Source: Nanobdellota archaeon (GTDB lineage: Archaea; Nanobdellota; Nanobdellia; Pacearchaeales; GW2011-AR1). Taken from it: DNA of 64,000 nt. A program made the position numbers and the translations under genes. The stretch spans positions 560-64,559 of the forward strand of contig DAOWGX010000015.1 in assembly GCA_030641715.1 (NCBI GenBank). The letters run 5' to 3'. The first letter of the stretch is position 1. Each line of letters starts with the position of its first letter. This document shows, one piece after another, positions 32,272-55,566 of this stretch. The notes under the pieces are model-generated. The model saw only the letters and a program-made list of their open reading frames with translations, had not been told where the DNA came from and did no database searches.

Positions 32272-33162
32272 TTGGTTCATGGAGCAACTCAACAGGAGAC
32301 GAAAATGATTGAGATGCTGATGAAACCGAAGAAGGCAGAGAGGCATCCTTGGGAAATGTTTTTCGTCGGGTTGCTTTATGCTTCAGTTTCGTTCGGTTTA
32401 GTTTCGTTCATTTTTAATAAAGACTCCGTTTTAGGAGAAGGCTCCGGACTTCTGATGGTGATTTTTACCGTGATGTGTTGCCTACCTTTCATGTATTATA
32501 TTATTAAACTTGAAGAGGGAAAAGATATTGAGATTGATGATTCAGGGAGGCTGATTAAAGAACATTCTAAAGCACTCTATGCTCTAATGTGGATGTTCCT
32601 AGGATTCGTCGTCGCGTTTTCAGTGTGGTATGTCGTGCTTCCGGATTCAGCTGGACAGAATTTCAATTTCCAGATAAAAACCTTTTGTGCAATTAATAGC
32701 CCCTTGCATTATTCAAAATGTGTCGAGCATCACGGTGTACCCTTCGCGACCGGAGCAGTTACCGGGATGTATAATTTCTTCGCAATTTTTTCAAATAATA
32801 TCTATGTTCTAATTTTCACCATTTTGTTCTCACTAGCCTTCGGTGCCGGAGCGATATTCATCCTTGTGTGGAACGCGTCGGTAATAGGTGCAGCGATTGG
32901 AATTTTTGCGAAAGGAAGTCTTTCTAATTTGCCTGGAGGGTTATTAAGATATATGGTTCATGGAATCCCTGAAATTAGCGCTTATTTTGTAGGTGCTTTG
33001 GCTGGAGGGATTATCTCCGTTGCAGTTATCCGTAAAGATTTACAAGGGGAACGAACTTGGAAAATTTTGCAAGACTCCTTACTATTGGTAATTATCGCGA
33101 TTGGGATTCTGGTCGTGGCTGCGTTGATGGAAATTTATCTTACACCTGTTTTGTTTTACTAG
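32272..33162 (+). CDS. Polytopic membrane protein, DUF95/SpoIIM-like.
   Basis: A NN...FTILFSLAFGAGAIFILVWNASVIGAAIG pattern. The true start is probably at MIEMLMK. Confidence 0.35.
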   Translation: MVHGATQQETKMIEMLMKPKKAERHPWEMFFVGLLYASVSFGLVSFIFNKDSVLGEGSGLLMVIFTVMCCLPFMYYIIKLEEGKDIEIDDSGRLIKEHSKALYALMWMFLGFVVAFSVWYVVLPDSAGQNFNFQIKTFCAINSPLHYSKCVEHHGVPFATGAVTGMYNFFAIFSNNIYVLIFTILFSLAFGAGAIFILVWNASVIGAAIGIFAKGSLSNLPGGLLRYMVHGIPEISAYFVGALAGGIISVAVIRKDLQGERTWKILQDSLLLVIIAIGILVVAALMEIYLTPVLFY

Positions 33163-33196: not shown

Positions 33197-34189
33197 ATGA
33201 TATACCCCCCACTAATCTCCATGCTAATCAGCTTCTTCCTTTCCATAACGATTTTACCTCACTGGATTCATAAATGCAAAAAAGCCGGATTAGTATGGGA
33301 AGACATGAACAAATTCGGTCACCCTAAAAACGTCGCCTCGTCAGGAGGAATTTGCGTAGTCATGGCATTCGTCCTCGGAGTTTTGTTTTACGTCGCCCTA
33401 AAGACTTTCGTTTTTGGAGGGACTGTTAGAGCATTAGAAATTTTCTCCCTCCTAAGCGTCATACTCATATTAGGAATCGTCGGACTTACGGATGATCTAT
33501 TAGGATGGAAACATCAAGGACTTTCAATTCGGTTAAGATTAGTTCTTGCATTTGTAGCATCAATTCCTTTAGTGGTGATTAATGCAGGAACCCATGTAAT
33601 GAATTTGCCTTTTGTCGGCGTAGTTAACTTCGGAATTCTATACCCTTTAGTTCTAATCCCTCTGGGAATCGCAGGTGCGACGACATCATATAATTTTTTA
33701 GCAGGATTCAACGGGCTCGAAGCAGGACAGGGAATTCTAATCCTCAGTTTTCTATCTTACGTCGCATACGTTACAGGCTCACCTTGGCTCGCAATCGTCG
33801 GACTTTGCATGGTCGCCTCCCTAATCGGTTTTTATTTCTATAACAAATTCCCCGCGAGTGTTTTCCCTGGAGACATCATGACCTATGCCGTCGGAGCTTT
33901 GATTGCAGGAATGGCGATTTTAGGGAACTTCGAAAAAATTGCTATCGTGATCTTTATTCCATACATCCTAGAGATTATTTTAAAATTACGTGGCGGACTA
34001 AAGAAGCATTCATTCGGAGTTCCTAACAAAAATGGAAATTTAAAAATGCCTCACAAGAAAATTTATGGACTTGAGCATTTAGCGATTAAAATTTTGAATA
34101 AATCTGGACAAGCAACAGAGAGAAAAGTTACTTATATGATTCACGCATTTCAGATATTATTTATTCTAATCGCATTTTTGATGTTGTGA
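33197..34189 (+). CDS. UDP-GlcNAc:dolichyl-phosphate GlcNAc-1-phosphotransferase family (GT4 MraY/WecA/GPT superfamily; AglH-like).
   Basis: A polytopic protein with GLTDDLLGW (the DD motif) and an overall GPT layout. Confidence 0.6.
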   Translation: MIYPPLISMLISFFLSITILPHWIHKCKKAGLVWEDMNKFGHPKNVASSGGICVVMAFVLGVLFYVALKTFVFGGTVRALEIFSLLSVILILGIVGLTDDLLGWKHQGLSIRLRLVLAFVASIPLVVINAGTHVMNLPFVGVVNFGILYPLVLIPLGIAGATTSYNFLAGFNGLEAGQGILILSFLSYVAYVTGSPWLAIVGLCMVASLIGFYFYNKFPASVFPGDIMTYAVGALIAGMAILGNFEKIAIVIFIPYILEIILKLRGGLKKHSFGVPNKNGNLKMPHKKIYGLEHLAIKILNKSGQATERKVTYMIHAFQILFILIAFLML

Positions 34190-34223: not shown

Positions 34224-35240
34224 ATGGGAAAAAATATCTTGAAGTATTTAGGGAAAATTAGAGGTACACGACTGGGGCAACAGATAGCAAGAGGAATTCT
34301 TTCTACAAAAATAATTGTCAATAGCCCATTATATAAAAAACTCTACAATAAAAAAATTGAATCCGTTATGTCGGCGAGAGAGAAAGTGTTACCTCGAAGT
34401 CTTGAAATCGGAATTACGAATGCGTGTAATGCCAACTGCATCATGTGCCCCCATCATAAATTGGAAAAAATAGGATTCATGGATATGAAACTTTACAAAA
34501 AAATTATCGACGATGCCAGCTCCTCAGGCATTGGTGGCGTAGGACTTTCTTTTTTTGGAGAAGCATTTCTGGATAAGAATTTAATCGAGCGAATAAAATA
34601 TGCAAAATCCAAAGGACTCGGAGTTTCCTTTTTTACAAATGGATCCTTAATGAATAAAGAAAAAGCAGAAGAGATAATTAAAGCAGGACTAGATTCTATG
34701 GTGATTAGCTTGGATTCAATAAAAAAAGAAACTTACGAAAAAATAAGAAGAAACTTAAAATTTGAAGATACAAAAAATAATATTTTAGGATTAATCAAAT
34801 TGAAGGAGAAATTGAAGAAAAACAATCCTAAAATTAATCTCGTTTTTGTTTTAATGGATGAAAACGCGTCGGAATTGAAAGAATATTACAAGGAATGGAG
34901 AAGCAAGGTCAATAGTATTAATGTTATCAACATGAGAAACTGGTCTGGAGAAGTGAACAATAAGACAGAAAAAAGCATTCATTTCAAAAAAGGACTAGAA
35001 AGGACCCCTTGCGGGTTGTTGTGGCAACAATTTAATATCGACTGGGACGGGAAAGTTGTAATTTGTTGTAACGATTGGGGGCACAATGTTGTTTTAGGAG
35101 ATATGAATAAAGAAAGCATAAGCGATGTATGGTTCGGGAAGAAACTAAAAGCTATTCGAGAGGTGCACAAGAGAAGGGAATTTTATAAAATACCATTTTG
35201 TGCAAAGTGCAATAAAAAGACCATCTGGTGGCAGATGTAA
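34224..35240 (+). CDS. Radical SAM enzyme with a C-terminal SPASM/twitch Cys-rich domain.
   Basis: CNANCIMC (CxxxCxxC) is present N-terminally, and the C-terminus carries CGLLW...CCNDWGH...CAKCNKK. Confidence 0.75.
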   Translation: MGKNILKYLGKIRGTRLGQQIARGILSTKIIVNSPLYKKLYNKKIESVMSAREKVLPRSLEIGITNACNANCIMCPHHKLEKIGFMDMKLYKKIIDDASSSGIGGVGLSFFGEAFLDKNLIERIKYAKSKGLGVSFFTNGSLMNKEKAEEIIKAGLDSMVISLDSIKKETYEKIRRNLKFEDTKNNILGLIKLKEKLKKNNPKINLVFVLMDENASELKEYYKEWRSKVNSINVINMRNWSGEVNNKTEKSIHFKKGLERTPCGLLWQQFNIDWDGKVVICCNDWGHNVVLGDMNKESISDVWFGKKLKAIREVHKRREFYKIPFCAKCNKKTIWWQM

Positions 35241-35455
35241 GATGATTCATTAAAGCTAATAAATTATTAGATTTATCTTAAGGTTTAAAAAATATGAGAA
35301 TTTATATAAAAAAGTTTTAGCAGGAGATGTCCCGCGTGAAAAAATAATCGAACGAATGGAATTCGCCGACGAATACAACGTTGCTTCTAAGTCAGCTCAA
35401 AAAAGTTACAAATGTTAATAGTGAAGTTTTTAAATAACAAGAGTTATAAATTTCT

Positions 35456-38119
35456 ATGGATAAAAAAGTTATTACAGATATCTTAAAAGATAAACGATTT
35501 CAATGGATAGCGACGACAATCATCTTCCTAATCATATTATTCATGAGCTCCTCTATCAGAGTTTCTAACTGGGATTTATTAACAGACCAAACCACTGGAG
35601 AGAAGATTCCACTAGCCTTAGACCCTTATTATTTTCTGAGAATTGCCGAAACCATTTCAGAAACTGGCGAAAATATGCCGGAAGTAGATGTTATGAGAAA
35701 TAGCACCCCGTGGCATGCAGAAATCATGCCGAAAGTCGTCGTCGGAATGTATAACTTTGGAAATGTTTTCAATCCAAATTTAACATTAAGAGAAGTGAAC
35801 GTTTTTTCCCCAGTTGCATTTTATTTCGTCGGGTTGATAATATTTTTCTTCTTAGTTTACATTTTAACAAAATCTAAAGTTGCGGGTTTAATCTCGTCGG
35901 GTTTGTTAGCCTTTTCCCCCGCATACCTTTATCGGACAATGGCAGGTTTCTCGGATCACGAATCTATAGGTATGGTCGCCCTCTTCGCTTGCTTTTTATT
36001 TTACACATTGGCACTAAAGAATTTTGAGCAGAATTGGAAAAAGACAGTTCTCTATGGATTAGGTCTAGGATTTTTTACTGCATTCGTTTTAGCGACGTGG
36101 GGGGGTGCTATCACCCTCGTATTGATGGCCGTTCCCCTTTCGTTTTTATTATACTGGCTACTAAAAAATAAAGATAGGGTAAAAGCAATCGCGTTTTATC
36201 TTGCATGGATTATCTCAAGTATTCTGTTCCCGTTAATCTTCAACAACACCTTAGTAAAAGTTATGATTGGTAGATTCTCGACCACATACGGACTACTTAC
36301 TTTTGCAGTTCTTGGATTTATGCTAATTGATTACATCTTTGAGTTATTAATTAAAACAGGGAAAATCAAAATAAAAAAAGAGAATAAGATTTTGTATGTT
36401 CTCGGAAGTTCTGCAGTGATAGGATCCGTCGCCCTAACCTTTTTAGGTAAAAACATTCTGGCACTTTTGAAAGATGTTTGGTATGCAATTTTATTTCCCT
36501 TTGGAACCACCCGTGTAAATTTAACCGTCGCTGAGAATGCACAACCTTACCTGATGGATTGGATTAATCAAAATGGTCCAATGATTTTCTGGCTATTTGT
36601 TTTTGGAATTTTCTTTATGGGATTTGAACTTGGAAAGACCATTAAGTCGAAAAAGCATACCTTACTATTTAGTCTATCTTGGATGTTGATGATTTCTGCG
36701 ATGTTGTTTAGCAGAATTTCATCTTCGTCAATATTTAACGGAGAAAACCTTCTTAGTCAAGCAACATATTTAATGGGCCTTGGAATTTTCCTAGGATATT
36801 TTATTTGGTTGAAAATGCATCAAAAATTTAATGGAGAAAAATTGGATTCTTCTTTAATCCTACTCATCGTCTTGATGTTTGTCGTGGTTCTTAATGGTAG
36901 GTCGGCCATTAGAACTTTCTTTTTGATTACTCCGTTTGTTCTTTTAGGAGTCGGATATTTCGTAATGAAAATTTTCAAATATGCTCGAGAAAGCAAGGAA
37001 GAGATTTTAAAAATAGTCCTTTGGGGATTATTTTTATTTGCGATTGGAGGAGTTTTATTTTCTGTAAACACTTACAAAGAAAATATTACTAATCAGGCCA
37101 AGTATACAGGACCTAGTGCAAACGTGCAGTGGCAGGGAGCGATGTCTTGGGTTCGTAACAATACAGAAGAAAGCGATAAATTCATGCATTGGTGGGATTA
37201 TGGATATTGGGTACAAACACTTGGTGAGAGACCGACGAGTGGCGATGGGGGACACTTCCAAGGGTTCTATAACGGGAACATAAGAATCGGACGGTATCTT
37301 CTAACGACAGATAAGCCAGAAAGTGCATACAGCCTCATGAAAACCCATAATGTTTCATACTTATTGATAGACCCAACGGATTTAGGAAAGTACAGTGCCT
37401 ATTCCAAGATAGGCTCCGACGACGATTGGGATAGATTTTCCATGATTCCCGTGGGAGTTTCCGATGAAAAGAATATAAAAGAGACTGCGGATGGCGTAGC
37501 TCAAATTTATCAGTTGAATAGCATTGTCGACGAGGATATTTATTACGAAGATATTTTCTTGCCAGGTCCGAGTTATGATACCTATGGCAGACCTTCTTAC
37601 AAATCTTATATTATCGGGATCATCCTAAAAGTAGGTTCTGGGGAGAACGGGACAATCGAACAGCCAGAGGCCGTTTATGTTTATAATAATATTCAATATA
37701 AAATTCCCTTAAGAAGAATTTACTTCAATGGTCGGTTGCACGATTTTGATAGTGGATTAAATGCAACCCTTAGATTAATCCCCTCAGTTCAGCAATCGGG
37801 ACAAGGGATGACAGTCAACCCTCTAGGAGCAGCGATATATTTATCTCCGAGAACTGAAAAGACTTTGTTTGCGAAACTATATTTGATGGACGATCCTTTA
37901 AGAGAATATAGCGAGATTTCTTTGGCTCACTCTGAAGATGGTCCTGTCGTCAAAGCGATGAAGATGCAGAATGCCGCGATAAATGACTTCGTTTATTATC
38001 AAGGATTTCGAGGACCTATCAAGATTTGGGATGTTGATTATCCCGTTGGGACCCCAGTCTATGAAGAATTTTTGAAACCTTCTACAGGTTATGGGGATGT
38101 TGATTGGAGGTTTGAGTAG
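35456..38119 (+). CDS. aglB: Archaeal oligosaccharyltransferase AglB (STT3 family).
   Basis: A 13-TM N-terminal region is followed by the WWDYGYW motif and a DK-like segment in a large C-terminal periplasmic domain. Size is 887 aa. Confidence 0.9.
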   Translation: MDKKVITDILKDKRFQWIATTIIFLIILFMSSSIRVSNWDLLTDQTTGEKIPLALDPYYFLRIAETISETGENMPEVDVMRNSTPWHAEIMPKVVVGMYNFGNVFNPNLTLREVNVFSPVAFYFVGLIIFFFLVYILTKSKVAGLISSGLLAFSPAYLYRTMAGFSDHESIGMVALFACFLFYTLALKNFEQNWKKTVLYGLGLGFFTAFVLATWGGAITLVLMAVPLSFLLYWLLKNKDRVKAIAFYLAWIISSILFPLIFNNTLVKVMIGRFSTTYGLLTFAVLGFMLIDYIFELLIKTGKIKIKKENKILYVLGSSAVIGSVALTFLGKNILALLKDVWYAILFPFGTTRVNLTVAENAQPYLMDWINQNGPMIFWLFVFGIFFMGFELGKTIKSKKHTLLFSLSWMLMISAMLFSRISSSSIFNGENLLSQATYLMGLGIFLGYFIWLKMHQKFNGEKLDSSLILLIVLMFVVVLNGRSAIRTFFLITPFVLLGVGYFVMKIFKYARESKEEILKIVLWGLFLFAIGGVLFSVNTYKENITNQAKYTGPSANVQWQGAMSWVRNNTEESDKFMHWWDYGYWVQTLGERPTSGDGGHFQGFYNGNIRIGRYLLTTDKPESAYSLMKTHNVSYLLIDPTDLGKYSAYSKIGSDDDWDRFSMIPVGVSDEKNIKETADGVAQIYQLNSIVDEDIYYEDIFLPGPSYDTYGRPSYKSYIIGIILKVGSGENGTIEQPEAVYVYNNIQYKIPLRRIYFNGRLHDFDSGLNATLRLIPSVQQSGQGMTVNPLGAAIYLSPRTEKTLFAKLYLMDDPLREYSEISLAHSEDGPVVKAMKMQNAAINDFVYYQGFRGPIKIWDVDYPVGTPVYEEFLKPSTGYGDVDWRFE

Positions 38120-38120
38120 G

Positions 38121-38972
38121 ATGATTGTGGTAAGAATTGTAGGGGGACTTGGAAATCAATTATTCCAGTATACGATGGCTAAAGCTTTAGCAGTTAAACA
38201 TAACGTACAGATAGGGGTGGATGCAACCTCGCTCAAAGGAAGAGACAAGGAGGGTCATTTTAGAAGAAAATTTAAATTAAATAGACTTAATGTCGATTTT
38301 GAGGAAATACCTTTGAAAAAAATAAGAAAATATATTTGGATAACGGGGAATAAATATATCGATGATCCTATTATTAGAAGATTCAGACTTTTTGAAAAAA
38401 ATGTTTGGCGAGACAATGGCATAATAAAAGATTTTAATAAATTACCTAATGATATTTATTTGGATGGTTATTTTGGTAATCCAGATTACCTTAAAGGCTT
38501 GCATAAAATACTTCAAAAGGAAATCAGATTAAGAGATACAAAACCTATTAAAGAAATATTAAAAAGTGTTAAGAGCTCCAACTCTGTTTCAATACATGTT
38601 CGCCGAGGAGATTTGTTAAAACTAGAAAATTCATACATCCTCCCATTAAATTATTATAAACAAGCAATTAAAATTATAACAAAGAAAATAAAAAACCCCA
38701 AATATTATATTTTTTCCGATGATATTAATTGGTGTAAAAAAAAATTTAACTTTTTGAAAAACACATGTTTTGTTGAAGGATATGATGTTACGCAAGATTT
38801 TGAATTAATGAAAAATTGCAAACATAACATTTTAGCAAATAGTTCTTTAAGTTGGTGGGTGGGTTATTTAAATTCCAATAGAAATTCTATTATTATTGCA
38901 CCGAAACATTTTGGAGTATGGAAAATTCACCCCGGGAAAGAACCAAGTTTAAAAAAATGGATTGTTATTTAA
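38121..38972 (+). CDS. GT11 alpha-1,2-fucosyltransferase-like glycosyltransferase. The start is moved to the ATG that abuts the aglB stop.
   Basis: IVGGLGNQLFQY, HVRRGD, ANSSLSWWVGYL and IIAPKHF match the FutC/GT11 motifs. GGAGG lies 17 nt upstream. Confidence 0.85.
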   Translation: MIVVRIVGGLGNQLFQYTMAKALAVKHNVQIGVDATSLKGRDKEGHFRRKFKLNRLNVDFEEIPLKKIRKYIWITGNKYIDDPIIRRFRLFEKNVWRDNGIIKDFNKLPNDIYLDGYFGNPDYLKGLHKILQKEIRLRDTKPIKEILKSVKSSNSVSIHVRRGDLLKLENSYILPLNYYKQAIKIITKKIKNPKYYIFSDDINWCKKKFNFLKNTCFVEGYDVTQDFELMKNCKHNILANSSLSWWVGYLNSNRNSIIIAPKHFGVWKIHPGKEPSLKKWIVI

Positions 38973-39022
38973 AATGAAAATATTAATAAAAATAAAATTG
39001 ACTAACGGGAGAGATCGTAGAT

Positions 39023-39994
39023 ATGACCGATAGAACATCTATAGTAGTTACAATTAGAACATCCCTTGGAAATACTCTTAATTTTGTTAGCTACCATCTT
39101 AATATTGGTATAGATCATATCTATCTCTTTTTCGATAATCCTGATGATCCTGCAATAAATTTCCTTTCAAAAAACAAAAAAGTTACCTGTTTCAAATGTA
39201 ATTTAAATCATTGGTCAAAATTAACTAATAAAAAAAAGCTGTCGATAGAAGAAAGACAAAAACTTAATGCAGATATGGCATTTAAGAAAGCTAAAAAAGA
39301 AAGCTATAATTGGATTGCCCACATAGATAGTGATGAATTAATTTATACTAGAGGATCCTTAAAAATTCTTTTGTCCAAAGTTCCAAAGGAGATACAAGTT
39401 CTTCGATTAAGAACCATGGAAGCAGTTCCTGAGAAATGCGAAGACAAAAACTTATTTAGAGAGATTACCTTATTTAAAAACCTGGGGCAGATTTCAAAAA
39501 TTTATTATTCACATAAAAAAATTCTCCAAAAAATAGTTCCTTTGTTAAAAAAATGCGAAGGCAATATTTCCGGAATTTACTTTAGGGCACATGCTGTTGG
39601 AAAATCAATAATACGTACAAACTCAAATATAAATCGTGTCGAAATCCATGAGCCTTCTCCGAAAGAGGGATGTAAATTAAAATGTATGTTCGTTTCTAAT
39701 GCCTCTCTTTTGCATTTTGATTCTTGTTCTTTTGAAGATTGGAAATTAAAATGGATTAGACGACTTGACGGAACTGCTACAGCTAAGGGGCTATGCAATG
39801 TAGAGGCTAGACTATTAGAGGATTTTGCGAAAGCTTACGAAATTAAGGATATAAACAAGATATACAAACTTTATAGAAAACAGTATTTTATGTCTTGGAT
39901 TAAAAAATTTATTTTTAAGCGAGTAGGATTATTAAAGCAAATAAACTTAAATGAGAAATTATTCAGGTTATCAGAAAATTTTAAAGAAGAGTAA
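39023..39994 (+). CDS. GT-A fold glycosyltransferase, GT92 (DUF23)-like.
   Basis: HW...Q...N.D...Y.WIAHIDSDELI resembles the GT92 hW-NDC-DxDEF signature. Confidence 0.4.
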   Translation: MTDRTSIVVTIRTSLGNTLNFVSYHLNIGIDHIYLFFDNPDDPAINFLSKNKKVTCFKCNLNHWSKLTNKKKLSIEERQKLNADMAFKKAKKESYNWIAHIDSDELIYTRGSLKILLSKVPKEIQVLRLRTMEAVPEKCEDKNLFREITLFKNLGQISKIYYSHKKILQKIVPLLKKCEGNISGIYFRAHAVGKSIIRTNSNINRVEIHEPSPKEGCKLKCMFVSNASLLHFDSCSFEDWKLKWIRRLDGTATAKGLCNVEARLLEDFAKAYEIKDINKIYKLYRKQYFMSWIKKFIFKRVGLLKQINLNEKLFRLSENFKEE

Positions 39995-40021
39995 TTTAAA
40001 AAAAATAGATTATTATTTAAA

Positions 40022-40951
40022 ATGAAAAAAATATTAAATAAAATACAAGATGATTATTTGCCTTTGTATACCTTCATGAAACAAATTTATGGGAATACCG
40101 TCGGAATGTGGTTCGCGAAAGAAATGTTTGTTAAATATATCGGATTCTATAACGGCAAAAAGCGTTTGAGGTTACTTAGTAATATCGAAAGTGATAAGAT
40201 TATAGTCGAAAAAGTTAAGTCCGGAAAACCTTTTATGTTAGGAAGGTTTGGTAGTAGCGAAGTCAGGGGAATTTTTAAAAATGAATTTGACATACTATGT
40301 TTTTATGCCGGATTTTTCCCGAGAGACAAAAGCCTATTGAGCAAATTTAAGAAAGTATATCTGGACGCAGCTAAATCTTTAGACATTTTAGCTATTTGGA
40401 ATTATAAAAATCATTTTTTAAATAAAATCAAATTACTCAGAACCTTACCGAATATTGAAAACATCATTCCCCTCCCTGCTGCAGGAGGCATAGATCGTCC
40501 CTGGATAAAAGAGCTAAAAGGAAAGAAGATTCTAGTAATCCATCCATTCAAAAAAACAATTGAAAGCCAGTATAAAAAAAGTGCACAACTAAAGATATTG
40601 CCAACTCTCAAAAGTCTCGAAGTGATAAAAGCAGTTCAAACCCTGGGAGACAACGAGGACAGCAGATTTAAAATATGGTTCGACGCATTGGACTTCATGA
40701 AAAAAGAAATCGATAAAAAAGATTTTGATATCGCATTGATTGCGTGCGGGGCTTATGGTTTACCTTTGGCAGCCCACGTTAAATCTATTGGAAAGCAGGC
40801 ACTGCATGTGGGAGGAGGGTTGCAGTTACTATTCGGAATAAGGGGTAAGCGATGGGATGACAAGATGGAATACAACAAATATTGGGTATCACCGATGAAA
40901 GAAGATTTCCTGAAAGACCATAAAAAGTTTGAAGGAGGATGTTATTGGTAA
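40022..40951 (+). CDS. Hypothetical protein, possibly a GT-D (DUF1792)-like glycosyltransferase.
   Basis: MLGRFGSSEV resembles the RFGDGE motif of DUF1792. Otherwise I recognise nothing. Confidence 0.3.
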   Translation: MKKILNKIQDDYLPLYTFMKQIYGNTVGMWFAKEMFVKYIGFYNGKKRLRLLSNIESDKIIVEKVKSGKPFMLGRFGSSEVRGIFKNEFDILCFYAGFFPRDKSLLSKFKKVYLDAAKSLDILAIWNYKNHFLNKIKLLRTLPNIENIIPLPAAGGIDRPWIKELKGKKILVIHPFKKTIESQYKKSAQLKILPTLKSLEVIKAVQTLGDNEDSRFKIWFDALDFMKKEIDKKDFDIALIACGAYGLPLAAHVKSIGKQALHVGGGLQLLFGIRGKRWDDKMEYNKYWVSPMKEDFLKDHKKFEGGCYW

Positions 40952-41003
40952 AAGAATTTGAGAGTAGAATTAATTATTTATAGCCAATAATCTAAATTTA
41001 GAT

Positions 41004-41807
41004 TCATTTTTTATTTATAGCCAATATATTCTGAAAATTATATATCTCATAATAAGTCTTTTTTGAAAAATCAATCTTTAACAATCCTCTTGGAAGAAGC
41101 CTATATAAATCATAATCTTTTAACAATTCTCTAAAATCTTCCATAAAAACTTTTGAATAAACATTTATCCAATTAAATTCAAATTGAATGATCTTTATTT
41201 TTCCTTCTTCAATTAGTCTTTTTGCTCCTTGAAGAACTGACAACTCATTTCCTTCAACATCTATTTTCATAAAATCAATCTTATTGATATTTCTTTGTTT
41301 GCAAAAATCATTTAACTTTATTAGATGAATTTCCTCTCCTCGCAAATCTTCATTATTTCTAAATACATTATGTATGCTGGCAAGAGAGGATGCACCTTTA
41401 AATTTTGGATAATAAATCATTTCCTTAGAATCTTCTTTGCCTAATCCCCAGGGAATAAGTTCAATATTCTTATTTGTTCCATGAAGTTTTTTGTAGGCTA
41501 TAATATTTTCAGATACTGGCTCAAAAGCATAAATTTTAGAATTTGGAAAATATTTTACTAATTCTTTCGAGTAATGTCCAACATTTGCCCCAATATCAAA
41601 AATAATTTTAGTTTTTTTGCTTGATAATTTTGAAAGAATAAATTCTTCTCCTGTGTCCGATAGGTTGCCATCAAGACTTACGCCCATTCCTTTTAAGGCA
41701 AGGCAAAGGAATAGTTTGTGTAGTTTATAAAAACAACTTCTTGAAAAAATGAAGCGATACAAATGGTCTGCAATCATTTTAGTTTTCATTTTCCTTATTT
41801 CCAACAT
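41004..41807 (-). CDS. FkbM-family SAM-dependent methyltransferase.
   Basis: FDIGANVGHYS ... KIYAFEP ... IDFMKIDVEGNELSVLQGA is the FkbM domain signature. Confidence 0.8.
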   Translation of the reverse strand: MLEIRKMKTKMIADHLYRFIFSRSCFYKLHKLFLCLALKGMGVSLDGNLSDTGEEFILSKLSSKKTKIIFDIGANVGHYSKELVKYFPNSKIYAFEPVSENIIAYKKLHGTNKNIELIPWGLGKEDSKEMIYYPKFKGASSLASIHNVFRNNEDLRGEEIHLIKLNDFCKQRNINKIDFMKIDVEGNELSVLQGAKRLIEEGKIKIIQFEFNWINVYSKVFMEDFRELLKDYDLYRLLPRGLLKIDFSKKTYYEIYNFQNILAINKK

Positions 41808-42172
41808 TTTTATATTTACAGATGATGTCAGTATAAAAAGATATGCATCCTAAGGTAGATATGAATGGAAAATCTATCCCTATTATTATGAAAGAAATTT
41901 TCGGAATATTAAAAAAAGAAAAAGAGTATTCAATTAGAAATTTATCATTAAAGATTAAGTCTTAGTAGATAATATTATATGCTAGTTCATTTTCACGCAA
42001 ACTGAAACAACACAATATTTAAATATAATAAACAAATAAAAGATGATGATAAATATTTATAATCATTTTCTATTAGTTGACAAGTTAGATTTTTTAAAAA
42101 TAAAGTTACCTAAATTGCACAGTCTTAAGAATCATTACGAATTTTATAACAAAATTAATATAAAAATACAAA

Positions 42173-43252
42173 ATGATTAACAAGGTAAATAATCTTAAAG
42201 AGGACTCAGCAATTTTAACTACCATTCGAGGGGGGTTTAACCAATTCTATGCCCAGCAAAAATGGTCCTTAACTGGTCCGAACAAGAAACTAAATGAGAA
42301 ACTTTTAGAAGAAATAAGAAGTAGCACAGTATTTAGAAATGAAGGATACTCGGATTATAAAATGACTTCCTTGCCAAAATCTCCTAGTACAATTACTAAA
42401 AGACAATTAGTTAAAGATATATTTTACCTAGGAGAAAAAGTAGACTTTCCTAAATCAATTGTTAAGAAGATTAGTCAACATCATGCTTGGAAAATAGAAA
42501 GGATTGGAATAAAGAATCCAAAAAAAATATTAGCTGTCGGAGTTTCTAATGGAGGAGAACTTATAGCATTGAGGGCGATGTACCCTCGTGCAGAAATATT
42601 CGTTTGTGATTGGATTATCTCTCTATCAAAAAAAATGATTGATGAACTAAATATAAAAAACGTAAAAAAATCGACAATATGTGAATATTTAAAACATAAC
42701 AATGAATTCGATATAATTTATACCAACCATGTCTTAGAACATATGTTTAATCCCGACGAAACAATTTCATTATTATTTAAATCCTTAAAAAAAGGAGGCG
42801 TGCTAAGTTCAGGAATGCCCTTAGAAGGAGACGTCAGAAATCCTTTAAAAAACAGGACAATTAGACTCTTATCTGGAAAAGCATTCTATAGAAAATTTAA
42901 TATGGGAACTGTAAACATTGGACATCCTTGGAAAACAACTTATTCCGACCTTTGTCTAACCTTAAGACGTTCCGGTTTCAAAAAAATCGAATTCTTTAAA
43001 TTTGATGATTATACCGCCGCATGGCACATTGTAAATCCATTACCAAAAGAAAAAGTTGCTAAAAATTTGAAAATCAGATTAATTTTAGAAAAACTTATTT
43101 TTGGGACTATAAGAAATATTTTCTATAAGATAGACAAAGTTCCGAACATTATTCTTAGAGTATATTATAATTTTATGCATGCTTCCTGGTTCGGAGAGAG
43201 TAGGATTGTGGCTGATTTCACTCCTGAAGTATTTTTTGTAGCAAAAAAATAA
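42173..43252 (+). CDS. Class I SAM-dependent methyltransferase.
   Basis: ILAVGVSNGGE (motif I), DIIYTNHVLEHM and LKKGGVL. Confidence 0.7.
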   Translation: MINKVNNLKEDSAILTTIRGGFNQFYAQQKWSLTGPNKKLNEKLLEEIRSSTVFRNEGYSDYKMTSLPKSPSTITKRQLVKDIFYLGEKVDFPKSIVKKISQHHAWKIERIGIKNPKKILAVGVSNGGELIALRAMYPRAEIFVCDWIISLSKKMIDELNIKNVKKSTICEYLKHNNEFDIIYTNHVLEHMFNPDETISLLFKSLKKGGVLSSGMPLEGDVRNPLKNRTIRLLSGKAFYRKFNMGTVNIGHPWKTTYSDLCLTLRRSGFKKIEFFKFDDYTAAWHIVNPLPKEKVAKNLKIRLILEKLIFGTIRNIFYKIDKVPNIILRVYYNFMHASWFGESRIVADFTPEVFFVAKK

Positions 43253-43307
43253 CCTCATTCCATACAATCCTCGATATCTTTAAATAGATAACATTATCAA
43301 AATATAC

Positions 43308-44234
43308 ATGACAAAAATTTACGATTGTTTCCTATTCTTTAATGAACTTGATTTATTAGAAATAAGACTCAGCGAATTAAATGATTTTGTAGATTATTTC
43401 GTTTTAGTTGAAGCTAGGCAAAACCATCAAGGCAAATCGAAACCACTTTATTTCAAGGAGAACAAAGAGAGATTTAAAAAATGGAATGATAAAATAATTC
43501 ATATTATAGTTGATTTACCAAGATTTAATTTTATGGACAGACTCATGGTTAATTTAGAAAAAGGGAGACTTAGGGAGCCTATCAGAAAAATAAATGGAAT
43601 TGGATTTTTTGGGATGGGATTTGGAGGTTTAAAAATGGATCATTGGCAAAGAAGGCTTATTATCAAAGGATTAAAAAAATGTGGGGATGAGGATATCATT
43701 GTCGTATCTGATTTAGACGATATCCCGCGTTCAGAAAAAATGAGAGAAGTGATAGAATTATTGACAAAGCATAAAGTTGTAACAATAGAAACAGATTTCT
43801 ATAATTATTATATCAATGGAAAGGTGTGTGCCCTAAATGGAAGTCAAATAAAACGGGCTCAGGTACGTGCATGCAAATTTAAAACATTAAAAAAAGAATT
43901 TTTCTCTAATCCGCATTTTCTTAGAAGTCCTTTTGATAGTCCCTTAGGGAGAATAGGGATAATACCTCGAAATAGCTATTTGCTAAAAGATGCTGGCTGG
44001 AGTTTTTGCTCAGTTGGAGGAGCGGAAAAAGTCAAATTAAAAATAGAGTCTTTCTGCCATAGTGGAGAATTTAAAGATAAAGAATATTCAAACATATCCG
44101 AGATATCAAAAAAAATAGAATCTGGTGAATCTCTTGGAAGCGATCTTCACGTAGAATATATCAGAGTAGATAATACTTTTCCAAAGACAGTATTGGATAA
44201 CAAAAAGAAATTTTCACATATTATAAAAGAATAA
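43308..44234 (+). CDS. GT17-like (beta-1,4-mannosyl-glycoprotein GlcNAc-transferase family) glycosyltransferase.
   Basis: The N-terminal YDCFLFFNELDLLEIRLSELNDFVDYFVLVEARQNHQGKSKPLYF matches the GT17 family start. Confidence 0.7.
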   Translation: MTKIYDCFLFFNELDLLEIRLSELNDFVDYFVLVEARQNHQGKSKPLYFKENKERFKKWNDKIIHIIVDLPRFNFMDRLMVNLEKGRLREPIRKINGIGFFGMGFGGLKMDHWQRRLIIKGLKKCGDEDIIVVSDLDDIPRSEKMREVIELLTKHKVVTIETDFYNYYINGKVCALNGSQIKRAQVRACKFKTLKKEFFSNPHFLRSPFDSPLGRIGIIPRNSYLLKDAGWSFCSVGGAEKVKLKIESFCHSGEFKDKEYSNISEISKKIESGESLGSDLHVEYIRVDNTFPKTVLDNKKKFSHIIKE

Positions 44235-45056
44235 TCATAGGTTTATTGTGCTTTGTAAACATTTAGAAATTCCTTCCCTAACTTTAATTTGAGGATTATA
44301 TCCTAGAGCTCTTATTTTTGAGATATCAATTTTTACTTTTTGAGGTTGTTCTATTTCATGAGGCGCAAATCTAATTTTTGATAAACTTTTTGTTTGAGAG
44401 ATTATCTCATTTGCAACATCTATTAATTTCATTTCATCATTTCCTGCAATATCATAACTTTCATTCCACCTTTGCAAAGAAAGTATCACTCCTTCAACAA
44501 AATCATCTACATATGTAAAATCTAGGGTTTTGTCTTTATCTCCAAAAATAACCAACTCTTTATTATTTTTTGCATTATTTATGAAAATACTCATTAATCT
44601 CTTTGTGATATCCTCTCCAGGACCATAAACAGTGCTTGGCCTAATTATGATGTAATCTATCCCGTAACATTTTTTATAGGCTTCACAAAGTTCCTCCCCA
44701 TATAGTTTTGAAGAAGTATAGGTATTTTTTTCAGGACATAAAACTCTTGTAGACGAAAAATAAACTATTTTAGGTATTTTGTTTTTCCTACAAAATTCTA
44801 ATGAATTAAAAATTCCTTCTACATTTTCAAAGGCCCACTCAGGATTATCTACACATTTATTTATCTTACAATTTGAAGCTAAGTGAAACAAAATATCTGC
44901 CTTTGAAATTTCTTTTTTAGAGAGATTCCTTACATCAAGAGGATTACTTTTGTCTCTTAAATCAACACTTAAAATACATTCATTTCCACCCCCCTCTAAT
45001 CTTTGTTTTAATCTCCTCCCAATAAGTCCTTTATGACCTGTAATTATAAAATTCAT
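44235..45056 (-). CDS. NAD-dependent sugar epimerase/dehydratase (SDR). The start is moved to MNFIITG.
   Basis: ITGHKGLIG is the Rossmann motif, and YTSSK is the catalytic YxxxK. Confidence 0.8.
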   Translation of the reverse strand: MNFIITGHKGLIGRRLKQRLEGGGNECILSVDLRDKSNPLDVRNLSKKEISKADILFHLASNCKINKCVDNPEWAFENVEGIFNSLEFCRKNKIPKIVYFSSTRVLCPEKNTYTSSKLYGEELCEAYKKCYGIDYIIIRPSTVYGPGEDITKRLMSIFINNAKNNKELVIFGDKDKTLDFTYVDDFVEGVILSLQRWNESYDIAGNDEMKLIDVANEIISQTKSLSKIRFAPHEIEQPQKVKIDISKIRALGYNPQIKVREGISKCLQSTINL

Positions 45057-45266
45057 TTTATAATAAAAAAACATTATTTATTTGCATAAAATTAAACAAG
45101 ACAAAAAGTATTTAATTGTTTCTATTTAATCGGTTTCGCCAAGAGTTTCAAAATTAAAAACAAAAATTAATTAGATTGAAAAACAAAGAGCAAATCGAGA
45201 TTTCTTTTTTATTGATTCTGAACAATACCCAATTAAGAGTAATTATATAAACTTGAATTAATTTAT

Positions 45267-50301: not shown

Positions 50302-50351
50302 GTGTGTTTGTGAATATAAATATTTATAAGTCTATTGATGTTTTTTTACAC

Positions 50352-51146
50352 ATGATTAAAGCCGTAATATTTGACCTTGATGGTGTTTTGGTAGATGCTA
50401 CAGAATGGCATTATGGGGCATTAAATAGAGCATTGGCCTTATTCGGATTTAATATCGATAGGGGTCTGCATCTTTCAGAATATAACGGACTTCCAACAAA
50501 AGAAAAATTGAAAAGATTATCCAATCAGAAAGAATTTCCATTATCTTTATTAGAATTTACAAATGAGATGAAACAAAAATATACTATACAAGAAATTGAA
50601 AAAAATTGTAATCCTGTTTTCGAAAAACAATTTATGATATCTAGACTAAAAAAAGATGGTTATGTTTTAGCAGTTTGTTCTAACTCAATAAAAGAAAGTG
50701 TATTTAAAATGTTGAATAATTCAGGCATTTTAGATTATTTTGAGATGACTGTTGGAAATGATGAAGGGTACCCAAATAAACCTAGTCCGGTTATGTATAT
50801 TGAAACTATAAAAAAACTTGGCGTTTCTCCAAAAGAAGTTATTATAGTTGAGGATTCTCCCCATGGAATTAATGCAGCTAAACTTTCTGGAGCTAATGTC
50901 TGTGAAGTAAAAGGATTTTCAGAAGTTAATTATGATTTGATTAAAAAATTTATTAGAAAAATAGAATCACAAAAAAACAAAGGAAGTATCGATAACATAA
51001 GTAATGATACCCTTGAGTTAAAAAATGATAAAGCGGAAAGTATATGTGAGATTTATAATCTCCTTGGAGAGAAGTTAAATACCGATTCTAGTGAAAATAT
51101 TTTGAGAGAAATAAAAGGGATTTTAACGAGGGAAATAAAATGCTGA
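50352..51146 (+). CDS. HAD-superfamily hydrolase, subfamily IA (beta-phosphoglucomutase-like). The start is moved to MIKAVIFDLDG.
   Basis: VIFDLDGVLVD (motif I), CSNS (motif II) and VEDSPHGINAAKLSGA (motifs III/IV). Confidence 0.8.
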   Translation: MIKAVIFDLDGVLVDATEWHYGALNRALALFGFNIDRGLHLSEYNGLPTKEKLKRLSNQKEFPLSLLEFTNEMKQKYTIQEIEKNCNPVFEKQFMISRLKKDGYVLAVCSNSIKESVFKMLNNSGILDYFEMTVGNDEGYPNKPSPVMYIETIKKLGVSPKEVIIVEDSPHGINAAKLSGANVCEVKGFSEVNYDLIKKFIRKIESQKNKGSIDNISNDTLELKNDKAESICEIYNLLGEKLNTDSSENILREIKGILTREIKC

Positions 51147-51880
51147 ATATTATAATTCCGATGGCGGGGAAAGGTTCTAGATTTATAGAAAAAGGATATA
51201 CTTTTCCAAAACCTTTAATCGAGATTAAAGGGAAACCTATGATTCAATTAGTAGTTGAAAACTTAACTCCTAAGGATATTGACCATAGGTTTATTTTTAT
51301 AGTCAGAAAAGAGCATTGTGATAAATATGCCATAAAAGAACTTCTAGGTAGCATTGCTCCAGATTGTATAATAATTCCTATTGATCTAGTGACCCAAGGA
51401 GCTGCATGTACTGTTTTATTAGCGAGCAAGTATATTAATAATAATGATTCTCTTTTAATTGCAAATTCTGACCAGTACGTTGATTTTAATTTTGAAGATT
51501 ATCTTAAATTTTCAGAAAATGGTAACAATGATGGATCAATCTTAACATTTCCTTCAAATCATCCAAAATGGTCATATGCTAGGTTGGATGATGACCTGAA
51601 TGTTATAGAGGTCGCTGAAAAGAAACCAATAAGCGATAAGGCTACTGTTGGGATATATTATTTCAAAAAGGGGAGATTGTTTTGCGAGAGTGTAATGGAT
51701 ATGATTCGTAAAAATATCCGAGTGAATAATGAGTTCTATGTTTGCCCGGCCTATAATGAAGCAATCCTTAACAACAAAAAAGTATCTATTTATAATATAA
51801 CACGGGATCAAATGTGGGGGATTGGAACTCCGGAAGATTTAGAACTTTTTTTGGGCAGTGATATCGCTAATAAAATCTAA
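51140..51880 (+). CDS. Sugar-phosphate/phospho-alcohol nucleotidyltransferase (GT-A NTP_transferase fold).
   Basis: The N-terminal IIPMAGKGSRF...PKPLIEIKGKPMI is the nucleotidyltransferase signature. Size is 246 aa. Confidence 0.8.
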   Translation: MLNIIIPMAGKGSRFIEKGYTFPKPLIEIKGKPMIQLVVENLTPKDIDHRFIFIVRKEHCDKYAIKELLGSIAPDCIIIPIDLVTQGAACTVLLASKYINNNDSLLIANSDQYVDFNFEDYLKFSENGNNDGSILTFPSNHPKWSYARLDDDLNVIEVAEKKPISDKATVGIYYFKKGRLFCESVMDMIRKNIRVNNEFYVCPAYNEAILNNKKVSIYNITRDQMWGIGTPEDLELFLGSDIANKI

Positions 51881-51881
51881 T

Positions 51882-52631
51882 ATGGAAATTTTTGCACATA
51901 GAGGTATTGGTTTTGGTTTGACAGAAAATTCTATTGAGGCTTTTGAGAAATGTCTAGATAATGGGTTCTCTATAGAAGTAGATGTTCAAAAAACTTCTGA
52001 CAATAAATTAATATTACTCCATAATAAATTCATTAAGGATTATAATGGGAAAAATATTAATATAGAGCGATCTTCATTTAATGAAATTAAGTGTCATGTT
52101 TACTCTTTTAATTCTTTGTTAAATATTTTTTCAGGAAAGAAAAATAATTTAAAAATGGCAATTCATATTAAAGACGAAAATCAAGGTGATATTTTAAAAT
52201 TGGTATGTAATGAAATTTTTAATAAAAAGTTAACTGATCGCTGTTTTATTTTTGATGTTACAAAAAATGGGAGGGATAAAATAAAAAAAATCAACCCATT
52301 AATTAATATTGGTTTTTCTGTTGGAGAAAAAAGACACTCAAAAACAATTTTTTTATTGGAAGATTTGGATAAAGAGAACTACGACATTGTTTGGTGGGAT
52401 TGGTGGGGATATGAAAAATTATATACTAAAAAAAATTTAGAAAGGATTAAAAATTCACTGAAAAAAGTATATGTAATTTCTCCAGAATTGCATAAAGAGG
52501 GTAATCATCCCTCTGCTAGAAATTTGAATAGAATAGAAAATGTATGGAATGATTTAATTTCGTTGAATGTCGATGGTATCTGTACCGACTATCCCTCGAG
52601 GTTATTTAATTTTTACAATAAACATCATTAA
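51882..52631 (+). CDS. Glycerophosphodiester phosphodiesterase (GDPD) family protein. The start is moved to MEIFAHRG.
   Basis: FAHRGIGFGLTENSIEAFEKCLDNGFSIEVDVQKTSDNKLILLHN matches the GDPD HR...EN..AF...E.D motifs. Confidence 0.8.
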   Translation: MEIFAHRGIGFGLTENSIEAFEKCLDNGFSIEVDVQKTSDNKLILLHNKFIKDYNGKNINIERSSFNEIKCHVYSFNSLLNIFSGKKNNLKMAIHIKDENQGDILKLVCNEIFNKKLTDRCFIFDVTKNGRDKIKKINPLINIGFSVGEKRHSKTIFLLEDLDKENYDIVWWDWWGYEKLYTKKNLERIKNSLKKVYVISPELHKEGNHPSARNLNRIENVWNDLISLNVDGICTDYPSRLFNFYNKHH

Positions 52632-52665
52632 CTTTGTCCGAATAACAAACAACATGGCGTTTTCA

Positions 52666-53085
52666 TCATCTTTCTACTAATGCCTTTAATCCACCTATAA
52701 AAATAACTGGACTAGACATGTGATACCTGCTCGAAGTTATTTTATTCCAAAAAAGTTTGTTTGCATAGTAAATTGGATAGAATAAATTCCTAATTAAACG
52801 AACTATAAAGCCAAATCCTTCAGTCCCTCGCTTGTCTATAAATTTTATTTTCTTAAAGCCTGCAGCGCATAAAACATAAAGAAGACTGCCTGATGTAAAT
52901 AATGTTTTATGAGTAAAGTCTTCATACATCCAATAGCATCCAGTGTTTGATTGGGCGTTTGGAACTATAACACAAAACTTTCCTTTTTCTGTCAAGGTAT
53001 ATTTTCGGATGGCAATTAATGTTTTAATTATTTCTTCTTTATTTCTTGGACCATCAGTTCCAATAAAAAGTTGTTTGGGTTTCAT
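52666..53085 (-). pseudogene. Chimeric gene remnant. The N-terminal ~20 aa are homologous to the start of the HlpA-like gene at 45267, fused to a C-terminal methyltransferase-like fragment.
   Basis: MKPKQLFIGTDGPRNKEE here matches KPKQLFIACDGPRNKEE at 45267, and the remainder lacks an intact domain. Confidence 0.3.
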
Positions 53086-53287
53086 TTTTTTATCCCCTAG
53101 AATGTTCTTTTACTAAATCTAGCCTATTGAAAACAGTATAAAGTATTGGAATATCGTATTGTTTTCCCATAGTGAATGTTATCCTGAAAAGTTTTTATAT
53201 TTAGTCGAATTAAAAATGGCCATATAAGAAGTACTTTTATTATTTCGTTCTAGACAACTAAGAAGATTATTTTATAAGCCCCCAATC

Positions 53288-53754
53288 TTATCCCACAACT
53301 TGAAAATTTATTCCTTTCTTTCTTGTAAAATCTTGAACGGTATTTAATACCCTAACCATACTAATATCATGACCTGCCAAAATTCCTCCAGCCTTAACTT
53401 TCAGATAATAATTTTCTAAATCTTCCAAAACATTTTTATAACTATGATTTCCATCAATATATATATATAATCTACAGTAGGAACTAAATTTATTGCCTCG
53501 TTTGAATACTTCTTCATCTAATTAACCTCCGAGTATTTTCTTAACCTTTTTTTGGCAATCTTGTTTATCTTATTCAAAAACGATTTCTTCACCTCGCACC
53601 GATCCTCTCTTTCAGAGTTATCGATATAATCATTATAGGGATCAACAAAATATATTTTTTCAATATTAAGATTATTTAGAATGTGTTGTGCATTTACTCC
53701 CCTGGAAGTTTCAATCTCTATTGCAGTAATCTTTTTATTTTTAAATAACATCAT
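53288..53754 (-). pseudogene. Frameshifted class I SAM methyltransferase (Methyltransf_24/TylF-like) pseudogene.
   Basis: The N-terminal part is in the 53518-53754 ORF (ITAIEIETSRGVNAQ...IYFVDPY). The C-terminal part (IDGNHSYKNVLEDLENYYLKVKAGGILAGHDI...) is in another frame. A (TA)5 run at 53461-53470 lies near the frame break. Confidence 0.4.
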
Positions 53755-55536: not shown

Positions 55537-55566
55537 GATATTCCTAGATTTATAATATATAAAAAC

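Follow-up and report, generated by a model that had tools for sequence, protein, structure and literature searches.

Introduction

The tailoring enzymes described for archaeal N-glycosylation (Agl) pathways, the S-adenosylmethionine (SAM)-dependent methyltransferase AglP together with dehydrogenases and epimerases dependent on nicotinamide adenine dinucleotide (NAD), are linked to aglB and act on the sugars of lipid-linked glycans. We know of no radical SAM (rSAM) enzyme among them, and our full-text search of the searchable literature found none described in Agl, oligosaccharyltransferase, dolichol, lipopolysaccharide (LPS)-core or capsule contexts, in agreement with a first-pass annotation of the DNA studied here. 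This DNA, hereafter the window, is a stretch of 64,000 nucleotides from a Nanobdellota archaeon (contig DAOWGX010000015.1, positions 560–64,559), in which the annotation had pointed to an rSAM gene between an AglH-like gene and aglB. We think it probable that this gene encodes a BtrN-type enzyme, with a so-called twitch domain, that modifies a sugar while the N-glycan transferred by AglB is being built in the cytoplasm.

Full SPASM domains of rSAM enzymes carry seven cysteines, in the order CX9-15GX4C-gap-CX2CX5CX3C-gap-C, and two clusters (PMC6231123), while a twitch domain is a shortened SPASM with one auxiliary cluster (PMC6231123; PMC9012708). The auxiliary cluster of BtrN is ligated by four cysteines, and the enzyme oxidises an aminocyclitol carbinol carbon to a ketone (PMC9012708, PMC10337720); that of MoaA has three cysteine ligands and an open iron site (PMC9012708). 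A fully cysteine-ligated auxiliary cluster of low potential has been tied to electron removal in two-electron oxidations (PMC9012708). Other rSAM enzymes of sugars epimerise: according to PMC10991966, Cys249 of NeoN gives a hydrogen atom in sugar epimerisation, and a paper on HygY cited there announces in its title that a single-cysteine mutation unmasks a latent dehydrogenase activity. Finally, Cds (calditol synthase) and HpnJ are rSAM enzymes that act on lipid-linked sugars by ring contraction (PMC13459092).

Results

The window gene encodes a twitch-domain radical SAM enzyme

The gene and its parts lie in the window as follows.

34224..35240, + strand: twitch-domain rSAM enzyme, 338 residues (open reading frame, Pfam, BtrN as best PDB match by sequence and fold)
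34224..34391, + strand: N-terminal extension of ~56 residues, basic and helical (model, charge, hydrophobic moment, start of the BtrN alignment)
34425..34448, + strand: CxxxCxxC motif C68-N-A-N-C72-I-M-C75 for the SAM-cleaving [4Fe-4S] cluster (conservation)
35010..35210, + strand: twitch domain C263-X12-G276-X4-C281 ... C326-X2-C329, a single predicted four-cysteine site, plus C282

An open reading frame (ORF) spans 34224–35240 exactly from ATG to stop, and its product matches Radical_SAM (PF04055) over residues 64–221 with 64.7 bits (cut-off 29.5) and SPASM (PF13186) over residues 263–330 with 55.4 bits (cut-off 21.5). Since it has 259 homologs at E ≤ 1e-5, among them full-length orthologs at 50–85% identity, and its family counts 4,329 representative clusters (50% identity) at E ≤ 1e-30, a chance ORF is ruled out and the rSAM gene proposed for this position is genuine.

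Conservation was read from an alignment of the query with 25 orthologs (49–85% identity, Pacearchaeota and Nanoarchaeota by their source names) and from 142 diverse representatives of the wider family. Seven cysteines are invariant among the 26 aligned orthologs, C68, C72 and C75 of the CxxxCxxC motif together with C263, C281, C326 and C329; among the 142 representatives, the first three are 100% and the other four 99% conserved. C282, beside the ligand C281, is present in 93% of the same set, and a GGE-like motif (G112-E113) is 96–99% conserved in the wider family. Only four of the seven cysteines of the two-cluster SPASM motif are present, and its CX5CX3C...C part is absent: the window protein stops 9 residues past C329, and 132 of the 142 members have no cysteine after the CxxC pair, where the tail is only ~13 residues long. 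We therefore assign the protein to the twitch class, because C263-X12-G276-X4-C281 and C326-X2-C329 are followed by the end of the chain; PF13186 still matches it because that model also covers the truncated twitch form. From the four conserved cysteines a single auxiliary [4Fe-4S] cluster is predicted.

The N-terminal 56 residues are all-helical in the AlphaFold model (four predicted helices), partly amphipathic and strongly basic (13 Lys/Arg against 2 Asp/Glu), and may serve to dock the protein to a membrane or a substrate. Residue 63 (34410–34412), five positions ahead of the first cluster cysteine, is an invariant Gly in the AglB-linked DPANN clade, a clade-specific change from the Glu found in 96% of the wider family and in BtrN (E11).

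A search for a named or characterised relative returned only generic source names for the family. No NCBIfam equivalog was reached either, every listed match lying far under its cut-off; the partial matches comprised a tungsten-cofactor rSAM maturase (127 bits, cut-off 380, generic core only), MoaA (~71–73 bits) and prokaryotic viperin (56 bits), both again in the generic core, and, far below their cut-offs, spiro-SPASM, N-terminal-twitch rSAM and BlsE.

BtrN is the closest enzyme of solved structure

We searched the PDB with the family profile and, separately, with a structure model. By profile, BtrN (4M7T/4M7S), the 2-deoxy-scyllo-inosamine dehydrogenase of butirosin biosynthesis, was the best match by far (E=2e-22), covering both the core and the auxiliary domain; BlsE followed (1e-8), then viperins, GDGT-MAS and MoaA, and no anSME or PqqE chain appeared at E ≤ 1e-3. 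When the C-terminal 84 residues were searched in isolation, BtrN was the only match in the entire PDB, and the alignment was ungapped. Consistently, the AlphaFold (AF2) model built from the ortholog alignment (pLDDT 87.5, pTM 0.88) had BtrN as its best Foldseek match in the PDB (E=1.7e-14, target-normalised TM 0.74), with BlsE second, followed by anSME, SuiB, SkfB, MoaA and viperins; DesII, a sugar enzyme, came lower in the list, below the peptide-modifying enzymes.

BtrN thus shares with the window protein, by both sequence profile and fold, an rSAM core followed by a twitch domain, and acts on a carbohydrate-like substrate. The auxiliary cysteines have the identical spacing, C-X17-C-X44-C-X2-C, ungapped over ~60–70 residues: C263 pairs with C169 of BtrN in the profile alignment, and C281, C326 and C329 pair with C187, C232 and C235 in the ungapped one. 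We take these four BtrN residues, as numbered in the alignment, to be its cluster ligands. By its four cysteines, their BtrN spacing and the closest predicted fold, the protein is a member of a BtrN-like twitch subclass, an assignment made on sequence and modelled structure.

The two enzymes differ in several respects. The aligned BtrN chain has no counterpart of the ~55-residue N-terminal helical extension, which precedes it entirely (the alignment starts at query profile position 53–55, at residue 6 of the 4m7s chain and residue 24 of the 4m7t chain). The conserved C282 aligns with Phe188 of BtrN, and Gly63 of the DPANN clade with a Glu. BtrN also belongs to an aminoglycoside antibiotic cluster, whereas the window family lies among genes of cell-surface glycan assembly (N-glycosylation, LPS core). 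We rejected orthology to BtrN, as a DOIA dehydrogenase, at 17–18% identity and with GPT (see below), AglB, GT2, GT4 and methyltransferase genes as neighbours instead of aminoglycoside genes.

Other enzymes offer looser comparisons. HygY, NeoN and AviX12 are rSAM epimerases acting on a sugar C-H in a glycoside or oligosaccharide, and HygY is described as a twitch enzyme; unlike the window family, they belong to secondary-metabolite (antibiotic) clusters. In this group a non-ligand cysteine (Cys249 in NeoN) is the hydrogen-atom donor, to which C282 could hypothetically be equivalent. The anSME structures (PDB 4K36–4K39) share the superfamily fold (Foldseek E ~1e-10), and anSME performs a two-electron oxidation with fully ligated auxiliary clusters, by analogy resembling the chemistry that we propose below; it differs in its seven-cysteine SPASM domain holding a pair of auxiliary clusters, its action on protein Cys/Ser and its pairing with a sulfatase. 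Cds and HpnJ, compared here by description, provide a precedent in archaea and bacteria for radical chemistry on a sugar already attached to a membrane lipid, although they modify membrane-lipid head groups and not carrier-linked glycans.

Orthologs lie in N-glycosylation gene clusters of DPANN archaea

The neighbours that frame the gene in the window are the following.

32272..33162, + strand: SpoIIM-like membrane protein, upstream of the GPT gene (Pfam SpoIIM; the order SpoIIM>GPT>AglB is conserved)
33197..34189, + strand: polyprenyl-phosphate GlcNAc-1-phosphate transferase (GPT) of the GT4 family, AglH/WecA/MraY-like (Glycos_transf_4 PF00953, 103.7 bits)
35456..38119, + strand: AglB/STT3 oligosaccharyltransferase, 887 residues, with the WWDYG motif (Pfam STT3, AglB_core-like, STT3-PglB_core)

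Pfam matches on both neighbours bear out the placement of the gene between an AglH-like GPT and AglB. AglB also matches NCBIfam archaeo_STT3 in part, and the GPT, judging from its family, primes the lipid carrier.

We scanned one genome per GTDB species, which yielded 324 relatives, and examined the best 80 loci. Of the 23 close DPANN reference loci, 16 have AglB no more than 10 kb from the ortholog, and it is also present on the contigs of five further orthologs (L081, L085–L088); four of the seven loci without it are contigs shorter than 5 kb (L004, L011, L014, L022). At an assumed rate of 2% (a 20-kb span in a ~1-Mb genome), 16 of 23 would arise by chance with p ~1e-22, a figure that treats related loci as more independent than they are. 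The canonical operon, found in many DPANN genomes and reproduced on four further contigs, for which the genes had been called independently and the Pfam matches precomputed, reads GPT>AglB>GT4>GT2>GT2>rSAM>GT4>methyltransferase (Methyltransf_23, MT23), where GT denotes a glycosyltransferase. Preceded by SpoIIM and with 4-bp overlaps, it occurs as SpoIIM>GPT>AglB>GT4>GT2>GT2>rSAM(>GT4>MT23) in L001, L003, L005, L006, L016 and L021. Other orders are AglB>rSAM (L020, L081), AglB>GPT>UDP-GlcNAc-2-epimerase>rSAM>GT4 (L013), GPT>B12-rSAM>rSAM>AglB (L009) and Prefoldin>rSAM>HAD<IF2B<SpoIIM>flippase>AglB>GPT (L017–L019). Because at least five distinct gene orders retain it, the linkage to AglB survived rearrangement. 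The conserved cluster with aglB and glycan-assembly genes makes the enzyme a putative component of the Agl pathway, and the link to N-glycosylation drawn in the first-pass annotation is upheld at the level of the neighbourhood (16 of 23 loci and the five contigs).

The genes around the ortholog vary. The UDP-GlcNAc 2-epimerase gene lies directly upstream of it in L007 and L013, a sulfotransferase gene directly downstream in L007 (10998–11939) and an MptE-like/DUF115 gene directly downstream in L020; the two downstream genes illustrate a variable tailoring set around a conserved rSAM gene. In L005 (5931–7031), as in L021, the gene that directly follows AglB and precedes the GT4-GT2-GT2-rSAM genes codes for a DUF362 protein that carries a 4Fe-4S ferredoxin domain and may be a dedicated electron donor of the rSAM enzyme. 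In three loci another, divergent paralog of the rSAM/SPASM type stands a few kb from the main copy (L087 4709–5857, minus strand; L013 ~17597–18475; L012 ~3987–4475, minus strand).

Bacterial relatives lie in lipopolysaccharide-core clusters

Bacterial relatives (29–41% identity) occur in Gemmatimonadota, Latescibacterota, Omnitrophota, Elusimicrobia, Nitrospinota and CPR, with a recurrent block GT2>rSAM>GT4>ABC exporter>GT9. Against the MsbA model the exporter reaches 569 bits, slightly under the cut-off of 602, and the WaaF-type GT9 exceeds the cut-off for heptosyltransferase II; these GT2-rSAM-GT4 modules lie in LPS-core clusters, without a protein acceptor. Over all loci, four recurrent GT families make up 46% of the genes at positions ±1 and 4–16% at ±5/6. 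Some family members also carry a Methyltransf_23 domain as a fusion, others a hexapeptide acyltransferase or a GNAT domain, partners typical of sugar tailoring and not of peptide maturation; the fused Methyltransf_23 is the family that follows the rSAM-GT4 pair.

The first-pass annotation had started from SPASM enzymes as classical peptide and protein modifiers, and several observations agree with such a maturase: the Pfam SPASM domain itself, the presence of anSME, SuiB, SkfB and CteB among the Foldseek matches (E ~1e-10), one homolog automatically annotated as AslB, and the fact that a twitch enzyme, SkfB, matures a ribosomally synthesised and post-translationally modified peptide (RiPP; PMC6231123). 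That premise gives way before the single auxiliary site, where anSME and most RiPP SPASM enzymes have two, before BtrN as the closest relative and before the lack of a RiPP recognition element (RRE) or precursor. The NCBIfam models for anSME, PqqE and sactisynthases are nowhere near their cut-offs, and the TIGR03942-type anSME profile that the annotation had named for a check is absent among the 25 best matches listed; in the PDB sequence search, SkfB alone among these groups reached E<1e-3, through the rSAM core only. No PqqD/RRE domain was matched by Pfam, and the N-terminal extension is purely helical. Pfam scans of 39 ORFs from 31 to 64 kb of the window showed no partner sulfatase, and the spacers flanking the gene, where a RiPP precursor was looked for, hold only chance ORFs of 20–24 residues. 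Clustering of neighbours revealed no conserved small ORF, a weak test as only ORFs of at least 90 residues were called. On cysteine count, profile scores and context we rejected an anSME/sulfatase identity, and for want of an RRE and a precursor ORF that of a RiPP maturase; the outcome that would have overturned the N-glycosylation link, closest homologs that are anSME with a sulfatase partner and an adjacency that is not kept, was not what we found.

The position directly upstream of aglB appears recent

The local arrangement is a REARRANGEMENT and bears a trace of an earlier one.

35311..35418, + strand: 3' remnant of a decayed B12-binding rSAM gene, its last 35 codons and stop (tblastn)

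The spacer between the rSAM gene and aglB is 215 bp long, and the frame of the remnant is open only from 35263. The remnant reads KVLAGDVPREKIIERMEFADEYNVASKSAQKSYKC and the intact B12-rSAM protein of L009 ends in KVLAGDVPREKIVELMEFADKYNSDSKAAHEIYKC, with 74% identity between the remnant and this C-terminus (tblastn, E=3e-11). The backbone genes of L009 are ~73% identical in DNA to those of the window, but its twitch rSAM, downstream of the intact B12-rSAM gene, is only 65% identical to that of the window. The window gene is nearer to the L081 allele (70% over the full length), which there follows AglB. From the remnant and this comparison of alleles, the slot between GPT and AglB appears to be a recombination hot spot in the lineage, and the GPT-rSAM-AglB position recent and lineage-specific.

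The position immediately upstream of aglB, taken strictly, is not conserved: L009 alone shares it, and the window bears signs of a recent rearrangement just there. We rejected strict adjacency to aglB as a feature of the family, as L020 and L081 have AglB>rSAM and the commonest order puts three GT genes between the two. As to the conservation of this adjacency that had been suggested for checking, linkage in the neighbourhood holds and direct adjacency does not. The canonical partners GT4 (+1), GT2a, GT2b, Epimerase_2 and DUF362 had no tblastn match in the window, where the sole partner match was a weak one to Methyltransf_23 at 42659–42820.

The glycan island of the window

The window opens with a ribosomal-protein/SecY operon and holds a glycan island from ~33 to at least 57 kb, in which Pfam matches identify the following genes downstream of aglB. 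The first seven form a first block (38091..45074) and the last six a distal block (50304..57048).

38091–38972: GT11
39023–39994: GT2/GT92
40022–40951: GT-D-like
41004–41807, minus strand: FkbM methyltransferase
42173–43252: Methyltransf_23 (cluster C3, as the methyltransferase after the rSAM-GT4 pair elsewhere)
43308–44234: GT17-like
44235–45074, minus strand: SDR epimerase/dehydratase
50304–51146: HAD
51140–51880: NTP-transferase
51858–52631: GDPD
53840–54859, minus strand: GT4
54859–55536, minus strand: WecG/TagA GT
55567–57048, minus strand: B12-binding rSAM, intact

Per gene, the GC content is 0.24–0.35 in the island (38001–54000) against 0.35–0.44 in the ribosomal/SecY/GPT/AglB backbone (18000–34000), with an intermediate 0.34 in the twitch rSAM gene; for the first block of the island the values are 0.28–0.35, compared with 0.38–0.44 for the backbone. 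The low GC would fit a region that is hypervariable or exchanged horizontally. The stop of aglB overlaps the GT11 start by 29 bp (38091–38119), which suggests co-transcription. Both spacers flanking the rSAM gene contain putative A/T-rich, TATA-like boxes ~25 nt before the start codons.

A second intact B12-binding rSAM gene lies at 61660–63102 (minus strand), in or beside the island, and B12-type rSAM genes recur near the twitch rSAM gene in L009, L012, L081, L086 and L088; these DPANN glycan clusters seem to make repeated use of radical chemistry. Split gene pairs resembling transketolase/E1 and dependent on thiamine pyrophosphate were found in the window (59656–61418, minus strand), L086 (19195–20398) and L087 (18637–19832), and may make branched-chain or two-carbon-extended sugars. 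Upstream of the GPT gene, an IF-2B-like ORF (31351–32346, 331 residues) overlaps the start of the SpoIIM-like ORF; since it is ~60 residues longer than its homologs (269–273 residues in L085, L086 and L088), its true start is probably further downstream.

Discussion

Most likely, the enzyme acts on an N-glycan intermediate in the cytoplasm, where it oxidises or epimerises a carbinol carbon of a sugar by radical chemistry. Of the three targets first suggested, the glycan is favoured, and neither the lipid carrier nor the acceptor protein is. In the family chemistry, the [4Fe-4S] cluster of the CxxxCxxC motif would reductively cleave SAM to give a 5'-deoxyadenosyl radical. Given the likeness to BtrN and the gene context, this radical would then take a hydrogen from a sugar carbon that bears a secondary alcohol. 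The sugar would belong to the dolichol-(pyro)phosphate-linked oligosaccharide under construction by the flanking GT2 and GT4 enzymes, or it would be their nucleotide-sugar donor. By the BtrN route, the auxiliary cluster would oxidise the substrate radical to a keto-sugar; by the HygY/NeoN route, a thiol on the opposite face, most plausibly that of C282, would quench it to give the epimer. Synteny and fusions suggest that the downstream GT4 would extend the modified sugar or that Methyltransf_23 would methylate it.

The extra conserved cysteine tilts the choice slightly towards an epimerase over a dehydrogenase for most members, the window protein included. In anSME, Asp277, the residue after the GX4C ligand, is presumably the proposed catalytic base, and by this comparison C282 would stand at the active site. 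Because the gene stands among GT genes, the N-terminus is basic and amphipathic, and Cds and HpnJ set a precedent, a lipid-linked oligosaccharide is a plausible substrate; a nucleotide sugar, e.g. UDP-ManNAc in view of the 2-epimerase gene next to it in L007 and L013, is equally possible. More speculatively, and with some doubt on our part, the enzyme could be the first rSAM step in N-glycosylation, acting on the dolichol-linked oligosaccharide between two GT steps, with the bacterial GT2-rSAM-GT4 module as its equivalent on the lipid A-core.

Several points weigh against a role in sugar tailoring as proposed here. The function, and with it the substrate and the reaction, is deduced from homology and gene context; identity to BtrN is only 17–18% (Foldseek alignment), and function is hard to predict in the SPASM/twitch group, where SkfB is a peptide-modifying twitch enzyme (PMC6231123). 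Three of the 26 sequences aligned from the DPANN clade lack C282, and no keto-sugar-consuming aminotransferase or reductase is consistently linked at the loci examined. L002, L008 and L015 have long flanks, and AglB was not found nearby; because tblastn shows none of the usual partners GT4 (+1), GT2a and GT2b in the window, the pathway here may depart from that of the canonical operon. Lastly, a distant member on a 4.58-Mb bacterial contig (P0285) lies outside any glycan cluster, so that the glycan association holds for the DPANN clade and for many of the bacterial members but not for every profile match.

Among the alternatives, another radical reaction on a sugar, such as an AprD4-like 1,2-diol dehydration or deoxygenation, a BlsE-like decarboxylation of a uronic acid, a DesII-like deamination or a ring contraction of the Cds/HpnJ type, is unlikely in our view. 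It would draw on BlsE, second-best by structure and by sequence and matched in the core by NCBIfam, on DesII among the fold matches, on the ring contraction of lipid-linked sugars (PMC13459092) and on the lack of a conserved downstream enzyme that would consume a keto-sugar. The BlsE match, however, covers only the core (query 60–173), whereas that to BtrN includes the auxiliary domain with its identical cysteine spacing, and a fully cysteine-ligated low-potential cluster is linked to two-electron oxidations (PMC9012708).

It is also rather improbable that the enzyme modifies the carrier or a membrane lipid (dolichol or polyprenol, archaeal lipids), in the manner of GDGT-MAS (Tes). The GDGT-MAS match (E=1.2e-6 by sequence, ~5e-9 by fold), which would speak for this, comprises the common rSAM core alone (query 56–183) and is far weaker than that of BtrN. 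The basic and amphipathic character of the N-terminal extension recalls peripheral membrane proteins, and rSAM enzymes are common lipid modifiers (PMC13459092), but the carriers differ, dolichol in archaea and lipid A in bacteria, and the GT2-rSAM-GT4 module is common to both. About 10 related bacterial loci have a polyprenyl synthase gene two positions upstream; as this is limited to one bacterial lineage, in which NuoL genes also flank the locus, it resembles inherited synteny.

Action on a soluble nucleotide or cofactor, be it a viperin-like dehydration of a nucleotide, MoaA-like chemistry or the maturation of a metallo-cofactor, with the glycan island incidental, seems to us just as improbable. 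Viperins are not known to have an auxiliary domain. The best NCBIfam partial matches (tungsten-cofactor maturase, MoaA, viperin) would favour such a substrate, yet all are far below their cut-offs and limited to the generic core, and while viperins and MoaA recur in the PDB lists by sequence and fold, the window family conserves four auxiliary cysteines against the three of MoaA. An incidental location would fit the recombination hot spot between GPT and AglB and the distant members outside glycan clusters; against it stand the linkage to GT genes, which peaks at the adjacent genes, with 4-bp overlaps, in archaea and bacteria alike, and the fusions to domains of the sugar-tailoring type. A peptide or protein maturase, be it anSME-like in forming formylglycine or a former of sactionine or other crosslinks, modifying the acceptor protein or AglB, is very unlikely on the evidence given above, to which the neighbours and fusions (glycosyltransferases, methyltransferases, acyltransferases) and the acceptor-free LPS-core clusters of the bacterial relatives are added.

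Such a step on the dolichol-linked oligosaccharide itself would, if true, allow a common sugar to be altered in place, by which DPANN archaea with their reduced genomes could show unusual sugars and yet need no dedicated nucleotide-sugar pathways, and the lipid A-core would be tailored likewise in several little-studied bacterial phyla. To our knowledge, the known tailoring steps of N-glycosylation and of the LPS core use enzymes dependent on NAD, pyridoxal phosphate, SAM as methyl donor or 2-oxoglutarate; what appears new, from sequence and context, is the recruitment of a twitch-type carbohydrate rSAM enzyme to primary cell-surface glycan assembly, and a conserved rSAM step would bring a new class of chemistry to both pathways. 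Contrary to a common habit of annotation, a peptide substrate does not follow from a match to Pfam SPASM, and the prediction changes once the cysteine ligands are counted. The finding would assign a function to a large, generically named family (over 4,300 clusters at 50% identity) and would offer a handle on the surface glycans of DPANN archaea, episymbionts that depend on contact with the host surface.

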